Part shown: positions 1 to 15,186 of the stretch, in pieces
Numbering within the stretch: position 1 is the stretch's first letter
Layout of the letters: each line of letters starts with the position of its first letter
Origin: a virus
Lineage: Duplodnaviria > Heunggongvirae > Uroviricota > Caudoviricetes
Length of the DNA: 35,937 nucleotides
Strand: one strand, 5' to 3'
IMG/VR virus record: IMGVR_UViG_2778261229_000003
Span: 1 to 35,937 of that record
Made by a program: the position numbers and the translations under genes
The notes under the pieces: generated by a model
The model's input: only the letters and a program-made list of their open reading frames with translations
The model's database searches: none
Told to the model about the DNA's origin: nothing

Positions 1-201
1 TTACCCATTGGCGCGGCTTAAGAGCTTATTTTTGAATTCACAATGGTCACGATATAACCATCTTGCTCGCCCGTGGATAACTTTGGCTTTTGGCAGGTCG
101 CCGGACTTAATCCGGTCGTAGATGAAGGTTTTACCGAAGCCAGTATCGGCCATGATGAATTTCAAATCAACCAGTGAATCAGGTTGTAGTTCGTGTTGCA
201 T
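1..201 (-). CDS. xis: Excisionase / AlpA-family DNA-binding protein
   Basis: 66-aa ORF with helix-turn-helix pattern FIMADTGFGKTFIYDRIKSGDLP...RWLYRDHCEF typical of AlpA/excisionase family; first gene at the left end of the prophage early region, integrase expected beyond coordinate 1. Confidence 0.6.
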   Translation of the reverse strand: MQHELQPDSLVDLKFIMADTGFGKTFIYDRIKSGDLPKAKVIHGRARWLYRDHCEFKNKLLSRANG

Positions 202-246
202 GAGTGCTATCTCCGAATAGGGAATCGAACCTGCAAATCAGGCAAT

Positions 247-268
247 AAAAAACCGCCATCAGGCGGCT
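247..268 (-). terminator. Rho-independent terminator (minus strand)
   Basis: Minus-strand hairpin GCCGCC-TGAT-GGCGG followed by TTTTTT (plus 246-266 reads aaaaaaccgccatcaggcgg). Confidence 0.5.
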
Positions 269-434
269 TGGTGTTCTTTCAGTTCTTCAATTCGAATATT
301 GGTTACGTCTGCATGTGCTATCTGCGCCCACAGCATCCAGTGGTCATAGCAGTCGTTGATGTTCTCTGCTTCGATAACTCTGTTGAATGGTTCTCCATTC
401 CATTCACCTGTTACTCGGAAGTGCATTTATCATC

Positions 435-464
435 TCCATAAAACAAAACTCGCCGTAGCGAGTT
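435..464 (-). terminator. Rho-independent terminator (minus strand) downstream of the 266-aa gene
   Basis: Minus-strand hairpin AACTCGC-TACG-GCGAGTT followed by TTTGTTTTAT, 20 nt past the stop at 484. Confidence 0.45.
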
Positions 465-483
465 CAGATAAAATAAATCCGCA

Positions 484-1284
484 TTAAGCGGCGTCGGTGA
501 ATTCAAATAAAAAACCGGCTTGCGCCGGCTCTCTCATCTTTCTGTCTACCCATGCTGATATCGATGGCGGGTGCACCTTTTCAATAGCAGCGCGAAGTAC
601 AGCTGTGCGTGCCAGTTTGTCGGTAATCTCAGGAAATCGCTTCTCTGTCTTCGGTACGTTAACAGCAACATTAGTAGAATCCGCACTGGCGAACGGATAC
701 ATACCAAGAACTCTCACGTCGAGCATTCGAAGACCATGAATTTTCACTTTCAAATTACGATTGATATAAAGCTCAGTGAAAACTTCATCCATTCTCTGTT
801 CCCACCATTTAGAGCGTATGTGCCTGTGTGGTCCGCAGCATCCAATCGCCACCCATTCAAATTTGCTAGAAAGGCGTAAAAGACGTTCAATTGATTCGTC
901 GGTATGCCAGACCGGAACCGCTTTTGATTTTAGCCAATCAGGAACCAACTCAATCTGCTCGTCGTTTTCTGCCTCTGTCCCTTCGATAACGTCAGGTATA
1001 AGAAACCATTCAATTCTGCTGAACCACTTCCCAACAAAGTCGTAGAATTTTGCTCGTCTCTTACTCCAGTCTACCGGAGTGCCTTTCTTTAATGCTTTCA
1101 TCCAGTCGCTAAAAGCACCGTTATCAAGGCGTATATCACAAGGGAACATGGCAATCTTTTTCATCTGCTCTGGTCTGGCAAATGAAACAAAAGCCCCACC
1201 ATCACGGTAAAGGGCTTTAATCAGCATATCTGTAGGGGCATGCTCATCCCCCCATATTGGGCTGCCGTGAAAGTGGATGGTCAT
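484..1284 (-). CDS. Hypothetical 266-aa ea-region protein; possible TGT-fold (DpdA-like) enzyme
   Basis: Long ORF, last gene of the leftward operon before xis; motif order LDNGAF ... HTDES ... AIGCCG ... SADST resembles the catalytic loops of tRNA-guanine transglycosylase family (from memory, not searched). Confidence 0.5.
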   Translation of the reverse strand: MTIHFHGSPIWGDEHAPTDMLIKALYRDGGAFVSFARPEQMKKIAMFPCDIRLDNGAFSDWMKALKKGTPVDWSKRRAKFYDFVGKWFSRIEWFLIPDVIEGTEAENDEQIELVPDWLKSKAVPVWHTDESIERLLRLSSKFEWVAIGCCGPHRHIRSKWWEQRMDEVFTELYINRNLKVKIHGLRMLDVRVLGMYPFASADSTNVAVNVPKTEKRFPEITDKLARTAVLRAAIEKVHPPSISAWVDRKMREPAQAGFLFEFTDAA

Positions 1285-1326
1285 ATTATCCCCATATAAA
1301 AGAAATCCCCGCGAATGCGAGGATTG

Positions 1327-1611
1327 TTATTCATTGCCGATATTCACCTTTATCGCGAATACCTTTACCGGTTTATCTCCGAAGTGCGGATGTGTGATTG
1401 TCTTGATTTCATATCCGTCATACGGAACATCAATTCTACGGCTGGAATCGTCGCGCTTCGGATATCCCTTTGTGATAATCAGGCGGTCATACTCCCGGAA
1501 CATAATTCGCTTATTCCAGTAGTCATTACACAGGCGATACTCTTCCGTTTTCTCTCCGCGAATGATGGCATCGAAGTATTCACCTTTAACGGCTAGTTGC
1601 AGGTTAGCCAC
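1327..1611 (-). CDS. ASCH/PUA-like small protein (DUF3850-like)
   Basis: 94-aa ORF; N-terminal pattern LAVKGEYFDAIIRGEKTEEYR resembles ASCH-type domains; start overlaps stop of upstream gene. Confidence 0.45.
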   Translation of the reverse strand: MANLQLAVKGEYFDAIIRGEKTEEYRLCNDYWNKRIMFREYDRLIITKGYPKRDDSSRRIDVPYDGYEIKTITHPHFGDKPVKVFAIKVNIGNE

Positions 1612-2167
1612 GGTTAACCTCCTGCGGCGGTTCCGGTAGCCGCATCCAGTCGGTTACATTGCGACTCTGTGTTTCGAAAAATTCATCACCATTGCGGACA
1701 ATATCGAAAAACTCTCCGTCTCGATATTGCGCATAAAGAACGAATGCGCCATCACATAAAATAATTACGTGCTGACCATCATCTGGCATTCGCTCACTAC
1801 AGCTTATCCAACCATCCGGAGTTACCGGAGTTGGTCCATCGAATTCGGGCATGTCAGGACCTTTTCTGATAGCTTTAGCCAGCTCCAGCGGGTCATCGTA
1901 AAGCCAGTCGCCAGTTTGTGGGTGATTTGCTTCTGCAAGCTGCGCAGCCCATTCAAGACCATCTTTTTGACCTTGGAGATAATCAAGCGGCAACTCTTCA
2001 TGATTACTTGCAGGTTCGGCACTATCAGCTTCGCGCCGCTTCTGTAGCTCTGCTGCCATCGCTCTCACGACTTCAACTGGTGCCCTTGCAGCAAACTCTA
2101 TGTTGGTGATCAGCTCATTAAGATATTGCTCGCTGGGATACTGTTTCTTATTGGTAATAGTGATCAT
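1604..2167 (-). CDS. DUF551-domain phage protein
   Basis: 187-aa ORF; C-terminal signature W..C.ERMP...VIILCDG...DWMRLPEPP typical of DUF551; ATGA overlap with upstream gene. Confidence 0.55.
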   Translation of the reverse strand: MITITNKKQYPSEQYLNELITNIEFAARAPVEVVRAMAAELQKRREADSAEPASNHEELPLDYLQGQKDGLEWAAQLAEANHPQTGDWLYDDPLELAKAIRKGPDMPEFDGPTPVTPDGWISCSERMPDDGQHVIILCDGAFVLYAQYRDGEFFDIVRNGDEFFETQSRNVTDWMRLPEPPQEVNRG

Positions 2168-2679
2168 GCCGCGTTTCCTTCTTTCTTATTAACAATTACA
2201 CCGTCATATATTTCATTAAGGTGCCCTCTCAACTCCATGCGCCTTAATGCAGATAACATGTAATCGCATTCAACCTGCTTATTTCCAGTAAATGGCTTAT
2301 CGTCAGGATTACCCCAACAGCAATTACCCTTGGGCCACCCATGTACTTTCCGTACTCTTCCGTTAACAACGTGAAGTAATCCCCAGCCAGGTGGTAAATC
2401 CTCAATTGAAATAATTCCCGGCTCACTAATAAAGAATCGCCAGTCGCCCATTCCAAGAGACGGATTTTTACGGAAACGCTTTTTTCTATCTGCCAACAAG
2501 TCAGCACGAGAACACTTCGCCTCTATCAAGCATGATGCTGAACTTCTGAATCCCATAGCATCTGGCTGTTCTCCGGTGCTGGTTACAGCTATAAAGCGGT
2601 CATGAAAGCAAACCTTGAACCCGTTGCGCTTAAGGAACTTGTACGCAATCTGACAGAGTTCGCGGTGTGTTAACGCCAT
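2164..2679 (-). CDS. PD-(D/E)XK-type nuclease-like protein
   Basis: Start refined to ATG 2679 (MALTHRELCQ) preceded by AAGGAG; motif GEQPDAMGF ... CLIEAKCSRADL matches D...ExK nuclease core. Confidence 0.5.
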   Translation of the reverse strand: MALTHRELCQIAYKFLKRNGFKVCFHDRFIAVTSTGEQPDAMGFRSSASCLIEAKCSRADLLADRKKRFRKNPSLGMGDWRFFISEPGIISIEDLPPGWGLLHVVNGRVRKVHGWPKGNCCWGNPDDKPFTGNKQVECDYMLSALRRMELRGHLNEIYDGVIVNKKEGNAA

Positions 2680-2680
2680 C

Positions 2681-2875
2681 TCACTCTCCTTTAGTGCGCA
2701 GATAACAGTGGTTTTTCCAGCGGTTTTGCGCCGCGCTGGGCTTTTTGCAAAAACCACAATCCATCATCCCGTAATGTTTCATTAACCCCACCCGTCGGTT
2801 GCTGAGTCTCACCCACTGCCAGACGCCAGGAGCGTTTCTGCGAACTAACAGAATCTTTGCTTTACGGTTTTTCAT
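2681..2875 (-). CDS. Small hypothetical protein (64 aa)
   Basis: ORF with AGGAG 9 nt upstream of ATG; ATGA overlap with upstream orf58 and stop 1 nt before nuclease start (translational coupling). Confidence 0.3.
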   Translation of the reverse strand: MKNRKAKILLVRRNAPGVWQWVRLSNRRVGLMKHYGMMDCGFCKKPSAAQNRWKNHCYLRTKGE

Positions 2876-3048
2876 CGTTTTGCTCTCCTGCGTTTCTTTG
2901 CTGCTCGTCGTGCCGATGCAATACCGGTATGGCGGCGCTTTGGTGCCGGGATGATGTTGTCAGCCATCAGGACATGTGGCTTTGCAATTAGCGCAGAAGC
3001 CCAAAAACGAGTCGGGTACGGTAACAAGCCGATACATGCCACACGCAT
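2872..3048 (-). CDS. Small basic hypothetical protein (58 aa)
   Basis: Hand-translated ORF MRVACIGLLPYPTRFW...RRAAKKRRRAKR; ATG overlaps the TAA of the Ea22-like gene (TAATG); below the 60-aa track cutoff. Confidence 0.3.
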   Translation of the reverse strand: MRVACIGLLPYPTRFWASALIAKPHVLMADNIIPAPKRRHTGIASARRAAKKRRRAKR

Positions 3049-3743
3049 TACTCACCTCCTTTGATGCGAATGCCAGCGGCGCGGGAATCATTCCATCGCT
3101 TTACTTCTTCACGAATTACGTCAATGCATTCTTTCGAATCCATTAGGTAATCTTCATCAAAAAGACGTTCCTGTTCGTTTTCTATCGCAACAATGATTGC
3201 TTCAACTAACTTTTGTGCCTGAGAACCACTTTCTAACTCTGCAATGCGCTTCTCTGCGGCTTCCAGCTTCTCGCGCATATCGTCAACGTACTCGACCAGA
3301 GATCCGCCAGCAGGAATTTCGCACTCCTCGACCAGTTGGAAGTAGATATCAGCTGCGGCCCGTGTGTTGCTATGCCTAGCGTCGCCCATCTCACCTTCAC
3401 GAAGAGCATCGCGTTCGGCGGTAAGATTGGCTATTTTGCTGTCTTTGCCTTCCAGCTCAACGCGCAGCCTCCCTACCGTTAGCGCAATATCCTCGTTCTC
3501 CTGGTCGCGGCGTTTGATGTATTGCAGGTTTCTTTCCCGTTCATCCAGTAGTGCCAAAGCAATCTTGGGATTAAAGGCAGCAATAAATTCAGCGTTGTTT
3601 TTCAGAACGTGTTGCGCAATGGCCTGACTACTTAGCCGGACTTCATAACCACGTGCGCCACGGTGTGGTTTATATGAGTCCCAGTCACCCCACGTTGCTT
3701 TCTCTGCCGCCTCACGCAGTGCCTGATAGTCAATCTTGCTCAC
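3048..3743 (-). CDS. Ead/Ea22-like family protein
   Basis: 231-aa ORF with N-terminus [21 protein letters not shown] typical of lambdoid Ead/Ea22-like proteins; acidic coiled-coil rich. Confidence 0.5.
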   Translation of the reverse strand: MSKIDYQALREAAEKATWGDWDSYKPHRGARGYEVRLSSQAIAQHVLKNNAEFIAAFNPKIALALLDERERNLQYIKRRDQENEDIALTVGRLRVELEGKDSKIANLTAERDALREGEMGDARHSNTRAAADIYFQLVEECEIPAGGSLVEYVDDMREKLEAAEKRIAELESGSQAQKLVEAIIVAIENEQERLFDEDYLMDSKECIDVIREEVKRWNDSRAAGIRIKGGE

Positions 3744-5152: not shown

Positions 5153-5701
5153 TTATTTAGCTAACTTTTTCCAGATCGCTGAAACGTATTTGGCTTGGTG
5201 AATGGCATCATCAAGAGCGTTGTGGCGAGTTCCTTTGAATGGCATATCTCGCTTAGGGTCGAATCCTATTACCTTTCCAAGCTCGACGATTGTTCTTACG
5301 TCGCGGTCATTCCACCACTGCCATGGAACTGGCTGCCCTGTCAGCGAATAACTGTTTCGGAGAATAACGCAGTCAAATGATGCTCCATTCCCCCAAACCT
5401 GAACGAATTTGTGGTTAGCGTTCTTTATGATGAATTCAGATAACCATGAAAGAGCCGTTGAAAGCTCCTGAATGTTGCTGGTTAGCGATTTTCTGGCTTC
5501 TTCACTCTGTTCCAGCCACCATAAAATCGTTGAAGCGTCAGGACGCGCCCGATATCGCATTGATGACTCAAGCGAGATATTTACCGAGAACTCTTCTCCT
5601 GTTTCTCCGGTATTCGGGTCAAAGAATACCGCCCCAATAGAAATAACTGGCGCGTATGGCCCGTTGCCCATTGTTTCAAGGTCAACCATCAAGTGATTCA
5701 T
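5153..5701 (-). CDS. DnaQ-like (DEDDh) 3'-5' exonuclease
   Basis: 182-aa ORF with exonuclease motifs MVDLETMG (Exo I) and HNALDDAIHQAKY (Exo III); AAGGA RBS; sits with SSB and annealase. Confidence 0.7.
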   Translation of the reverse strand: MNHLMVDLETMGNGPYAPVISIGAVFFDPNTGETGEEFSVNISLESSMRYRARPDASTILWWLEQSEEARKSLTSNIQELSTALSWLSEFIIKNANHKFVQVWGNGASFDCVILRNSYSLTGQPVPWQWWNDRDVRTIVELGKVIGFDPKRDMPFKGTRHNALDDAIHQAKYVSAIWKKLAK

Positions 5702-7471: not shown

Positions 7472-8440
7472 TTAGTAGGTTATTTTTGTTGCGAATACTT
7501 CGCCTTTTACGATGGCTGTTATGATATTTTTAGCAACATCTTCTGATGCGCCAACCTTGATAAGGTCAGCAAGTATTTTGTTATTTACTTCTTTCCGGTG
7601 AGCTTTATCCTTTGCTCTACGCTCTTCTTCGTCCTTGATTCTTTTTTCTTCTGCTATTCTGGCTTGCTCTTTTGCTTCAGCCTCGCGCCGGATTCGTTCT
7701 GCCTCCTCCTGTGCTTTACGGCGTTCTGCTTCAATTGCCGCATGCTTTTCTCTTTCAGTTCGTTCTGCTGCCTCTTTTGCTTCGCGCTGTGCTCGTTGCT
7801 CGGCTTCAATGCGTTCACGCTCTGCACGTTCCGCTGCGGCCTTAGCTTCTGCTTCTCGCCTTGCTGCTGCTTCAATTTCGGCTTTTGCCTTTGCTTCGGC
7901 TTCTGCTCTGGCTTTCTCTTCAGCTTCTCTTTTTAAGCGTTCTTCATGCTCTCGCTTTTCCTGCTCCGCTTTGAGTCTTTCCTCTTCTCTTTGGCGGTCA
8001 AATTCGCGATCCATCAAAATCGCTATTTCATGGTCAGACTCAATTTGCTTTGCGAGAGCTTCAGCTGCTGCCTTAGCTTCTTCTTCGGCTTTAATCCGCG
8101 CCTGTTCTTCCTCATAATCAGTAAGAGGCTGGCGCGCCTTGGCTTTCAGTTCATCAAGGCGATCGCGCACTGTCTTGCGGTTGGCATCAATTAGCTTTGG
8201 AATTTCCTTAAGTTCAGCAACAAGGTCTTTGCCAAGACCATCGAGATATGTTTTCGTCTGCGCAACTTTATACGCCAGAGAAGCGATCTCCTTTCTGCCC
8301 TTTGCCGTTGTGATATCAGGCACAAAGGACATAACTTCACGTTCAACCTTTTGAAGGATTTCTTCAATCTGGTCGGCAGACTGAAATACAGTCATTGCAT
8401 TTGCTTTTTCAATAACAACTAAATCTGTTACTTCACTCAT
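7472..8440 (-). CDS. ER/K-rich charged-repeat protein (predicted single alpha-helix / coiled coil), unknown function
   Basis: Track ORF 7472-8494; start refined to ATG 8440 (MSEVTDLV) with GGAGG RBS; central ~170 aa of A/E/K/R repeats (EAEAKAKAEIEAAARREAEAK...). Confidence 0.6.
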   Translation of the reverse strand: MSEVTDLVVIEKANAMTVFQSADQIEEILQKVEREVMSFVPDITTAKGRKEIASLAYKVAQTKTYLDGLGKDLVAELKEIPKLIDANRKTVRDRLDELKAKARQPLTDYEEEQARIKAEEEAKAAAEALAKQIESDHEIAILMDREFDRQREEERLKAEQEKREHEERLKREAEEKARAEAEAKAKAEIEAAARREAEAKAAAERAERERIEAEQRAQREAKEAAERTEREKHAAIEAERRKAQEEAERIRREAEAKEQARIAEEKRIKDEEERRAKDKAHRKEVNNKILADLIKVGASEDVAKNIITAIVKGEVFATKITY

Positions 8441-8452
8441 ATATCCTCCGTT

Positions 8453-8479
8453 AAAAAAATCGCCCTCACATTGGAGGGC
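8453..8479 (-). terminator. tL1-like rho-independent terminator (minus strand)
   Basis: Minus-strand hairpin GCCCTC-CAATGT-GAGGGC followed by GATTTTTTT, immediately upstream of the RBS of the ER/K-rich gene. Confidence 0.5.
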
Positions 8480-8541
8480 AAAGAAGATTTCCAATAATCA
8501 GAACAAGTCGGCTCCTGTTTAGTTACGAGCGACATTGCTCC

Positions 8542-9086: not shown

Positions 9087-9413
9087 TCAAATAAGTGGTT
9101 TGCTGCCTAATTTCATTTTCTGGCGCCCAACACAAGTCACACCCATTTCGCTGCGTGGCTTGCTGTACCATGTGCGCTGATTCTTTCGCTGAATACGTTG
9201 CAGGTTGCTTTCAATCTGTTCGTGGTATTCAGCCAGCACTGTAAGGTCTATTGGATTCAGTGCGCTTTCTACTCGTGATTTCGGTTTGCGATTCAGCGAG
9301 AGAATAGGGCGGTTAACTGGTTTTGCGCTTACCCCAACCAACAGTGGATTTGCTGCTTTCCATTGAGCCTGTTTCTCTGCGCGACGTTCGCGGCGGCGTG
9401 TTTGTGCATCCAT
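9087..9413 (-). CDS. N: Antitermination protein N
   Basis: Start refined to MDAQTRRRERRAEKQAQWKAANPLLVG... which matches lambda N nearly residue-for-residue (from memory); arginine-rich boxB-binding motif. Confidence 0.9.
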   Translation of the reverse strand: MDAQTRRRERRAEKQAQWKAANPLLVGVSAKPVNRPILSLNRKPKSRVESALNPIDLTVLAEYHEQIESNLQRIQRKNQRTWYSKPRSEMGVTCVGRQKMKLGSKPLI

Positions 9414-9571
9414 CTGGATTCTCCTGTCAGTTAGCTTTGGTTGTGTGTGGGAGTCGTAGTCCTGAACGAAAACACCCCGCGATTGGCACATTGGCAGCTA
9501 ATCCGGATTCGCACTTCCGGCCAATGCTTCGTTTCGTATCACACACACCAAAGCCTTCTGCTTTGAATGCT

Positions 9572-14221: not shown

Positions 14222-14662
14222 ATGAAAAAACTAACCTTTGAAATTCGATCTCCAGCACATCAGCAAAACGCTATTCACGCAGTACAGCAAATCCTTCCAG
14301 ACCCAACCAAACCAATCGTAGTAACCATTCAGGAACGCAACCGCAGCTTAGACCAAAACAGGAAGCTATGGGCCTGCTTAGGTGACGTCTCTCGTCAGGT
14401 TGAATGGCATGGTCGCTGGCTGGATGCAGAAAGCTGGAAGTGTGTGTTTACCGCAGCATTAAAGCAGCAGGACGTTGTTCCTAACCTTGCCGGGAATGGC
14501 TTTGTGGTAATAGGCCAGTCAACCAGCAGGATGCGTGTAGGCGAATTTGCGGAGCTATTAGAGCTTATACAGGCATTCGGTACAGAGCGTGGCGTTAAGT
14601 GGTCAGACGAAGCGAGACTGGCTCTGGAGTGGAAAGCGAGATGGGGAGATCGGGCTGCATGA
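14222..14662 (+). CDS. ninB: Recombination protein NinB
   Basis: Start refined to MKKLTFEIRSPAHQQNAIHAVQQILPDPTKP..., matching lambda NinB from memory. Confidence 0.85.
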   Translation: MKKLTFEIRSPAHQQNAIHAVQQILPDPTKPIVVTIQERNRSLDQNRKLWACLGDVSRQVEWHGRWLDAESWKCVFTAALKQQDVVPNLAGNGFVVIGQSTSRMRVGEFAELLELIQAFGTERGVKWSDEARLALEWKARWGDRAA

Positions 14663-15186
14663 CTATCAAATCAAATACGCCAGCACACGACAAGGACTGC
14701 TGGCAAACGCCGCTTTGGCTTTTTGATGCACTGGATATTGAGTTTGGATTCTGGCTGGATTCGGCAGCGAGCGACAAAAATGCTCTGTGTGCTCACTGGC
14801 TAACTGAGGCCGACGACGCGCTCAATTCTGAGTGGGTAAGCCACGGTGCAATCTGGAATAACCCACCGTACAGCAATATCAGGCCGTGGGTGGAAAAAGC
14901 CGCTGAGCAGTGCATTCATCAGCGCCAGACGGTAGTGATGCTTGTGCCAGAGGATATGTCTGTCGGATGGTTCAGCAAGGCTCTGGAGAGTGTCGACGAA
15001 GTTCGCATTATCACTGATGGACGGATTAATTTTATCGAACCATCGACGGGGCTGGAGAAGAAGGGAAACAGTAAAGGCTCCATGCTGCTGATTTGGCGAC
15101 CGTTCATCAGTCCTCGGCGGATGTTTACTACCGTATCCAAAGCGGCATTGATGGCGATCGGGCAGGGCGTCAGGAGGGCGGCATGA
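14659..15186 (+). CDS. dam: Phage DNA N6-adenine methyltransferase (Dam-type)
   Basis: Start refined to [22 protein letters not shown]; catalytic NPPY motif in [10 protein letters not shown]; ATGA overlaps with ninB and ninE. Confidence 0.75.

Follow-up and report, generated by a model that had tools for sequence, protein, structure and literature searches.

A 266-residue protein encoded near one end of a lambdoid phage genome is probably a minimal DNA-guanine transglycosylase of the DpdA type, a reading to which we give a probability of about 70%. By its sequence relationships, it would belong to a 9g-like (DpdA1-related) 'singleton DpdA' clade of gamma-proteobacterial phages. The window, by which we mean the whole stretch of 35,937 nucleotides analysed, is a P22-like lambdoid phage or prophage, with an N-type antiterminator, a cI-like repressor, nin-region genes and a P22-type portal and capsid. 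The gene under study is the following.

484..1284, minus strand: coding sequence of the predicted DpdA-type (TGT-like) TIM-barrel protein, an ATG-started open reading frame of 266 aa

The DpdA identity has been known as a prediction since Hutinet et al. 2019, because the orthologue in phage HK106 (gp29, YP_007151699) is in their catalogue; Supplementary Data 1 lists it as a DpdA among phages with 'DpdA but no G+ or preQ0 biosynthesis protein homologs', beside Salmonella phage 7-11, PEAT2, SfI, SPN3UB and BTP1. The HK106 protein is 98.5% identical to that of the window and is encoded at the same position upstream of xis-int, so that there is essentially no difference between the two, although the window gene is found with a P22-like and not an HK97-like virion module. 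The proteins of phage 7-11 (gp032) and PEAT2 are 58% and 64% identical to it, respectively. Among 5426 complete E. coli genomes, 82 carry the gene, in every case on the chromosome, and despite the 2019 catalogue the RefSeq/PGAP label is still 'hypothetical protein' on 12 of 12 records among the matches listed; the gene therefore deserves a functional name. To the earlier prediction, the present analysis adds a residue map, an assignment to the DpdA1 rather than the DpdA2 side of the family, a tight coupling to VUT (YhhQ-family) genes with loss of VUT in the E. coli lineage, and recurrent fusions to Dam.

Relationship to DpdA and tRNA-guanine transglycosylases

The protein matches PHROG 887, 'queuine tRNA-ribosyltransferase', with an E-value of 1.3e-102. 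A profile built from an alignment of 66 diverse homologues (mean column identity 24%) was compared with characterized enzymes using hhalign, and it aligned to the DpdA of phage 9g with a probability of 98.35% (E 1.1e-14, 154 columns) with the catalytic motifs paired, whereas the probabilities for the two negative controls, E. coli Tgt and the DpdA2 of Vibrio phage nt-1, were 0.13% and 1.2%. Together with the identity to the catalogued HK106 protein, this match supports the TGT/DpdA-like identity that the first-pass annotation had put forward. The (beta/alpha)8 barrel which that annotation had in view is also predicted, as the AlphaFold2 model (pLDDT 93.1) consists of eight beta/alpha units. 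On the strength of this model, the fold appears to be a TIM barrel closest to DpdA and TGT. A Foldseek search of the model against BFVD returned 26 matches at E<=1e-3, every named one of which is a phage queuine or queuosine tRNA-ribosyltransferase, and the match that follows has an E-value of 2.7e-3, about 40-fold above the preceding 6.9e-5. The corresponding search of the PDB returned generic TIM barrels and Cap10 only, and is not discriminating.

Several database searches were negative. The protein has no Pfam match at E<=10, none of the 66 family members has one at E<=1, single-sequence and profile HMM searches of NCBIfam, PADLOC and PDB sequences returned nothing, and the PADLOC DpdA model gave no match at E<=10. 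These negatives say little against family membership, since the validated 9g DpdA is equally invisible to Pfam and to a PDB sequence search. A homologue search started from 9g DpdA recovered nothing below 70% identity to the query, and hence no bridge to TGT.

The DpdA of Enterobacteria phage 9g (DpdA1, gp03) inserts preQ0 into DNA. Beyond the 98.35% match, the two proteins share the D, F, H..E, G, H196 and DS positions, and both lack the Zn-binding CxCxxC site as well as a Pfam match. They differ in size (266 aa versus 317 aa), the N-terminal 60 and the C-terminal 90 residues of 9g DpdA being absent from the window protein, and there is no similarity at the BLAST level. The genomic settings differ too, because the DpdA genes of 9g and CAjan are located within a FolE-QueD-QueE-QueC cluster and these phages modify 25–32% of G, while the window has no such cluster.

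Other members of the superfamily are more distant. The bacterial DpdA of S. Montevideo (PDB 7UI4) is a 413-aa protein with four insertions, including one of 128 residues in strand 8, and a structural Zn site; in the bacterial Dpd system, it needs the DpdB ATPase and works with DpdC. None of these features is found in the window, where the neighbours of the DpdA-like gene are ordinary lambdoid early genes. The window protein matches TGT (PF01702) neither in Pfam nor by profile comparison, and it lacks the Zn site, the beta-sheet lid at the N-terminus and the C-terminal region for tRNA binding. In E. coli Tgt, the Zn cysteines are C302, C304 and C307, and the window protein is without a CxCxxC...H motif; its only cysteines are C49, C149 and C150, and because none follows residue 150, a Zn site is not expected. 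The DpdA2 of nt-1 (YP_008125322), for which the same reaction has been proposed, has only the 1.2% profile match, and low modification levels (<0.1% of G) were reported for DpdA2 phages. Finally, the likeness to Cap10 of type IV CBASS (PDB 9NTN) is structural only; Cap10 acts on a protein N-terminus together with Cap9 in a defence operon, and its partners Cap9 and CD-NTase are absent around the window gene.

Predicted catalytic residues of the barrel

Only six columns are invariant among the 66 aligned sequences, those of D54, D98, H127, H183, D202 and S203, while G148 is nearly invariant. In the model, the invariant residues follow strands 3, 4, 5, 7 and 8 and G148 ends strand 6, which gives the order D(b3)-D(b4)-H(b5)-G(b6)-H(b7)-D(b8). 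The corresponding segments are listed below.

1111..1128, minus strand: LDNGAF, residues 53-58, closing strand 3; the predicted roles are general acid/base for D54 and stacking on the base for F58
979..999, minus strand: IPDVIEG, residues 96-102, in the loop past strand 4; D98 or E101 is the candidate base-recognition acid
892..906, minus strand: HTDES, residues 127-131, at the end of strand 5; H127 is invariant, E130 nearly invariant and D129 variable
832..849, minus strand: AIGCCG, residues 146-151, the Gly-rich loop that follows strand 6; contact with the 7-substituent is predicted
730..741, minus strand: IHGL, residues 182-185, strand 7; H183 is invariant
673..687, minus strand: SADST, residues 200-204, closing strand 8; the catalytic nucleophile is predicted to be D202

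The first-pass annotation had noticed LDNGAF, HTDES, AIGCCG and SADST in this order, and the order is confirmed from the sequence. Four of the six invariant columns (D54, H127, D202 and S203) lie within these motifs, and the four motifs exceed chance.

The structure paper on bacterial DpdA provides the framework for assigning roles. In that structure, Asp95 and Phe99 are found at the strand-3 loop, the strand-8 insertion has Asp256 at its start, and Asp130 and His181 are listed between the two aspartates; a Gly-rich loop, through which TGTs and DpdA contact the 7-substituent, follows strand 6. Asp256 is the nucleophile and Asp95 the general acid/base, and both D95A and D256A are inactive; the roles proposed here for D54 and D202 are drawn by analogy from this mutagenesis. 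In a MAFFT alignment with 9g-type DpdA, D54 and F58 pair with D72 and F76 of 9g (LDSGAF), and the D-x3-F spacing is the same as that of Asp95/Phe99 in the bacterial enzyme. D202 and S203 pair with D215 and S216 (SCDSS), and G148 with G162 (LGGLVG). Furthermore, H127 corresponds to H141 and E130 to E144 of 9g (FHAGEP), at the strand-5 position of bacterial DpdA His181.

The parallels that had been drawn by eye with the TGT motifs hold for LDNGAF, AIGCCG and SADST, but HTDES is not the counterpart of the 'DEC' motif: its D129 varies, and the positions that are conserved in it, H127 and E130, are part of strand 5, as is His181. In addition, the two catalytic aspartates had been assigned the other way round, since the predicted nucleophile is D202 in SADST and the predicted acid/base is D54 in LDNGAF. 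The true counterpart of the 'DEC' aspartate (Asp130 of bacterial DpdA, Asp156 of TGT) is a candidate assignment to D98 or possibly to E101, judging from the alignment. D98 follows strand 4 and is invariant in the 66 sequences; 9g has Ser111 in this column, and E101 is also considered because Asp114 of 9g faces it. H183, which pairs with His196 of 9g, is of use for classification, because His196 is conserved in the 9g type and absent from DpdA2 (Hutinet et al. 2019), whereas its equivalent is invariant in the window family; by this mark, the protein groups with DpdA1 within the family.

The gene, its operon and its neighbours

The reading frame matches the annotated 801-nt coding sequence HK106_029 of phage HK106. 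Its dN/dS is 0.04–0.07 versus copies that are 75–88% identical, with synonymous sites near saturation, and 0.12 versus HK106; the gene is thus real and constrained by purifying selection. The leftward early operon has the gene at its far end, where Ead/Ea22-like, DUF551 and ASCH-like genes flank it on one side and xis on the other, so the earlier placement in the 'ea region' was right. The elements that bear on its expression are as follows.

1289..1293, minus strand: GGGGA, a Shine-Dalgarno-like sequence 4 nt ahead of the ATG, with a putative function in translation initiation
1304..1325, minus strand: terminator-like hairpin with a T-run directly upstream of the DpdA-like gene, from a consensus scan
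446..465, minus strand: terminator-like hairpin with a T-run just past the stop codon of the DpdA-like gene, from a consensus scan
9087..9491, minus strand: N-type antiterminator gene (Pfam N36, E 2.8e-26) at the head of the same leftward operon

No sigma-70-like promoter was detected on either strand of window positions 1-3200, as against 5.0 +/- 2.5 in shuffled sequences, and given the terminator-like hairpins that flank the gene, we infer that it is likely expressed in lytic growth through N-antiterminated read-through. The hairpin at 1304..1325 would then represent a module boundary that is crossed by the antiterminated transcript. The order of the N gene and the leftward operon is the same as in HK106, where a PL-like promoter is annotated. 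The same 3200 nucleotides contain eight terminator-like sites, compared to 3.2 +/- 1.8 expected. A third hairpin with a T-run (509-534, minus strand) lies within the 3' end of the coding sequence, where it encodes the peptide EPAQAGFLF, which is kept in a 76% identical DpdA-like::Dam fusion protein (P0006); it is a candidate terminator or recombination boundary.

The gene directly upstream (1327-1611, minus strand) encodes a 94-aa ASCH-like protein, the Pfam ASCH match of which falls under the curated cut-off (18.6 versus 21.2 bits), while PGAP calls its homologue an ASCH domain protein; it occupies the position of the VUT gene in relatives. In the prophage of E. coli 20AR1039 that is homologous to the window, PGAP labels the xis-like frame (window 1-201, minus strand) as 'response regulator inhibitor TorI'. 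Two further early-operon products, one of 197 aa (2164-2757, minus strand) and one of 340 aa (7472-8494, minus strand), have no Pfam match and hit only PHROGs of unknown function (phrog_9263/631 and phrog_1376/21365, respectively). In the recombination module, a gene for an Rv2179c-like 3'-5' exoribonuclease-family protein (5153-5701, minus strand; PF16473, E 1e-72) adjoins ssb and a Rad52/Erf-type annealase. The nin region includes a Dam-family N6-adenine DNA methyltransferase gene (14599-15186, plus strand; PF05869, E 1.3e-64), so that the phage has two putative DNA-modification genes; in relatives, this Dam domain and the DpdA-like protein are joined in one fusion.

The first-pass annotation had seen no preQ0 synthesis genes in the window, and this stands, as tblastn detected no FolE, QueD, QueE or QueC either in the window or in 79 IMG/VR loci with homologues. 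Likewise, neither the window nor the homologous prophage contains a Cap9/QueC-like or CD-NTase gene. A search for preQ1 riboswitches and other Rfam RNAs in the window and near the VUT-DpdA modules recovered only two tRNAs, in the Phleasolo locus.

Context in relatives, alternative readings and biological meaning

The 79 IMG/VR loci were also surveyed for neighbouring genes. In 21 of them, a Vut_1 (YhhQ-family) gene of about 155 aa ends at the start codon of the homologue, a layout also seen in the annotations of PEAT2, Phleasolo and a Flyfo siphovirus. YhhQ is a preQ0 transporter, and CAjan has a yhhQ gene within its dpdA cluster. The VUT gene is present in all ten loci with a 76–88% identical copy, and absent from all 29 with a copy at least 98% identical, and from the window; in this the window differs from PEAT2 and the 76–88% identical relatives. 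In a lambdoid prophage inserted beside fliE/fliF and represented by at least three independent assemblies (L088-L090, 5001-6383), the VUT gene is followed by a 460-aa fusion of the DpdA-like protein to Dam, and a second lineage has a 569-aa DpdA-like::Dam fusion (L044, 6001-7710). A C5-cytosine and N6-adenine methylase abuts the homologue (41–43% identical) in five loci; in one of them (L078, 6792-9695), it is a 967-aa protein with C5-cytosine and D12 N6-adenine DNA methylase domains, the start of which lies 9 nt inside the 3' end of the DpdA-like gene. Moreover, a single metagenomic protein (P0211; L091, 2840-3847) is a fusion of QueD (6-pyruvoyl-tetrahydropterin synthase family) to the DpdA-like domain. 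Taken from gene neighbourhoods, these links to VUT, QueD and Dam or other methylases would tie the family to 7-deazaguanine supply and to a DNA substrate.

Some other features of the loci are recorded for completeness. P0211 is on one 24-kb JGI metagenome contig, with a dCMP-deaminase-like gene about 5.7 kb downstream. In twelve loci (L066, 6753-9266, and 11 similar ones), the homologue is 39–42% identical and located directly upstream of a Pfam Phage_GPA gene, for bacteriophage replication gene A protein. The copy in L041 (3689-4488) is frameshifted, with an 800-nt match and 24 in-frame stops after the shift, and is likely a pseudogene or a sequencing error. Two apparent fusions to a methylase and a baseplate protein (P0127 and P0167) were set aside as probable chimeras, because the DpdA segment is identical in both and both partners are truncated.

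Three other readings were weighed against that of a DNA-modifying DpdA. It is very improbable that the protein is a TIM-barrel enzyme of another kind, for instance an aldolase, a PdxJ-like protein or a glycosidase, with a coincidental resemblance to TGT motifs, since the family profile pairs its catalytic motifs with those of 9g DpdA and gives next to nothing with the two other TIM-barrel proteins, the BFVD matches are specific, the lack of a Pfam match is shared by 9g DpdA itself, and the linkage to VUT, QueD and Dam favours DpdA. A TGT-fold enzyme that acts on something other than phage DNA, such as host tRNA or a protein, and thereby reprograms host translation or disables a host protein, has a precedent in the 7-deazaguanine-protein conjugation by Cap10. 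We regard it as improbable, given that no Cap9/QueC-like or CD-NTase gene is nearby, that the TGT Zn subdomain and the C-terminal RNA-binding parts are missing, that the Dam fusions and adjoining methylases point to DNA, and that the closest relative of known function by sequence, 9g DpdA, uses DNA.

The protein might also be a diverged or effectively inactive relative, which binds or excises guanine or sequesters preQ0 with no useful insertion, or which persists as a marginal passenger after the loss of VUT in E. coli. That loss in all 29 of the closest loci would fit such a fate, as would the published reports that Orion is unmodified and that the DpdA1 of phiSM is inactive when expressed in E. 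coli, the very low level in phage 7-11 (about 0.02% of G) and the frameshift in L041. However, selection on the gene is strongly purifying with every invariant catalytic residue kept, 79 complete E. coli genomes contain intact copies of 95–100% identity, and preQ0 production and a YhhQ transporter are both native to E. coli; we therefore consider inactivity unlikely.

If the protein is an active DpdA, it would probably be made early in lytic growth and would act on replicated phage DNA by the double displacement of TGT and DpdA. D202 on strand 8 would attack C1' of the target deoxyguanosine and displace guanine, with D54 on strand 3 as the general acid; the 7-deazaguanine base (preQ0, or ADG or preQ1) would then bind between F58 and the strand-7 region and be read by the strand-4 acid (D98 or E101), H127 and the Gly-rich loop, and D54, now as a general base, would resolve the covalent intermediate. 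As neither the window phage nor the 'DpdA-only' clade has precursor genes, the base must be made by the host queuosine pathway or taken up by the host YhhQ. Hutinet et al. 2019 accept the DpdA-only phages as a group, the hosts of which encode the queuosine pathway, and CAjan mutants without their own folE or queC keep dPreQ0 at a 12-fold lower level, which was credited to host-made preQ0. The outcome would be a sparse, probably motif-specific modification that may shield some sites from nucleases. In this scheme the substrate, the DNA target, the expression route and the protective effect are all what we infer from homology and gene context. The 7-11 phage carries dADG at 50 per 10^6 nt, a figure obtained with no deletion control (Hutinet et al. 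2019), and modification this sparse may give no bulk protection, by analogy with the CAjan mutants, in which the 12-fold lower level is already insufficient.

The VUT-DpdA::Dam fusions suggest a composite DNA-marking module with adenine methylation, and we tentatively propose, as a minority possibility, that the DpdA-only enzymes of temperate enterobacterial phages use precursors made by the host or imported through VUT to mark DNA with a 7-deazaguanine (perhaps ADG), sparsely and at specific motifs, as one arm of such a module and not as bulk anti-restriction. The VUT coupling, the Dam fusions and the loss of VUT in the E. coli lineage lead to predictions that can be tested in an easy genetic system. 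A mark of this kind could serve self-recognition or the evasion of one particular defence system, and a P22-like or lambda-like coliphage would be a genetically tractable model for the idea.
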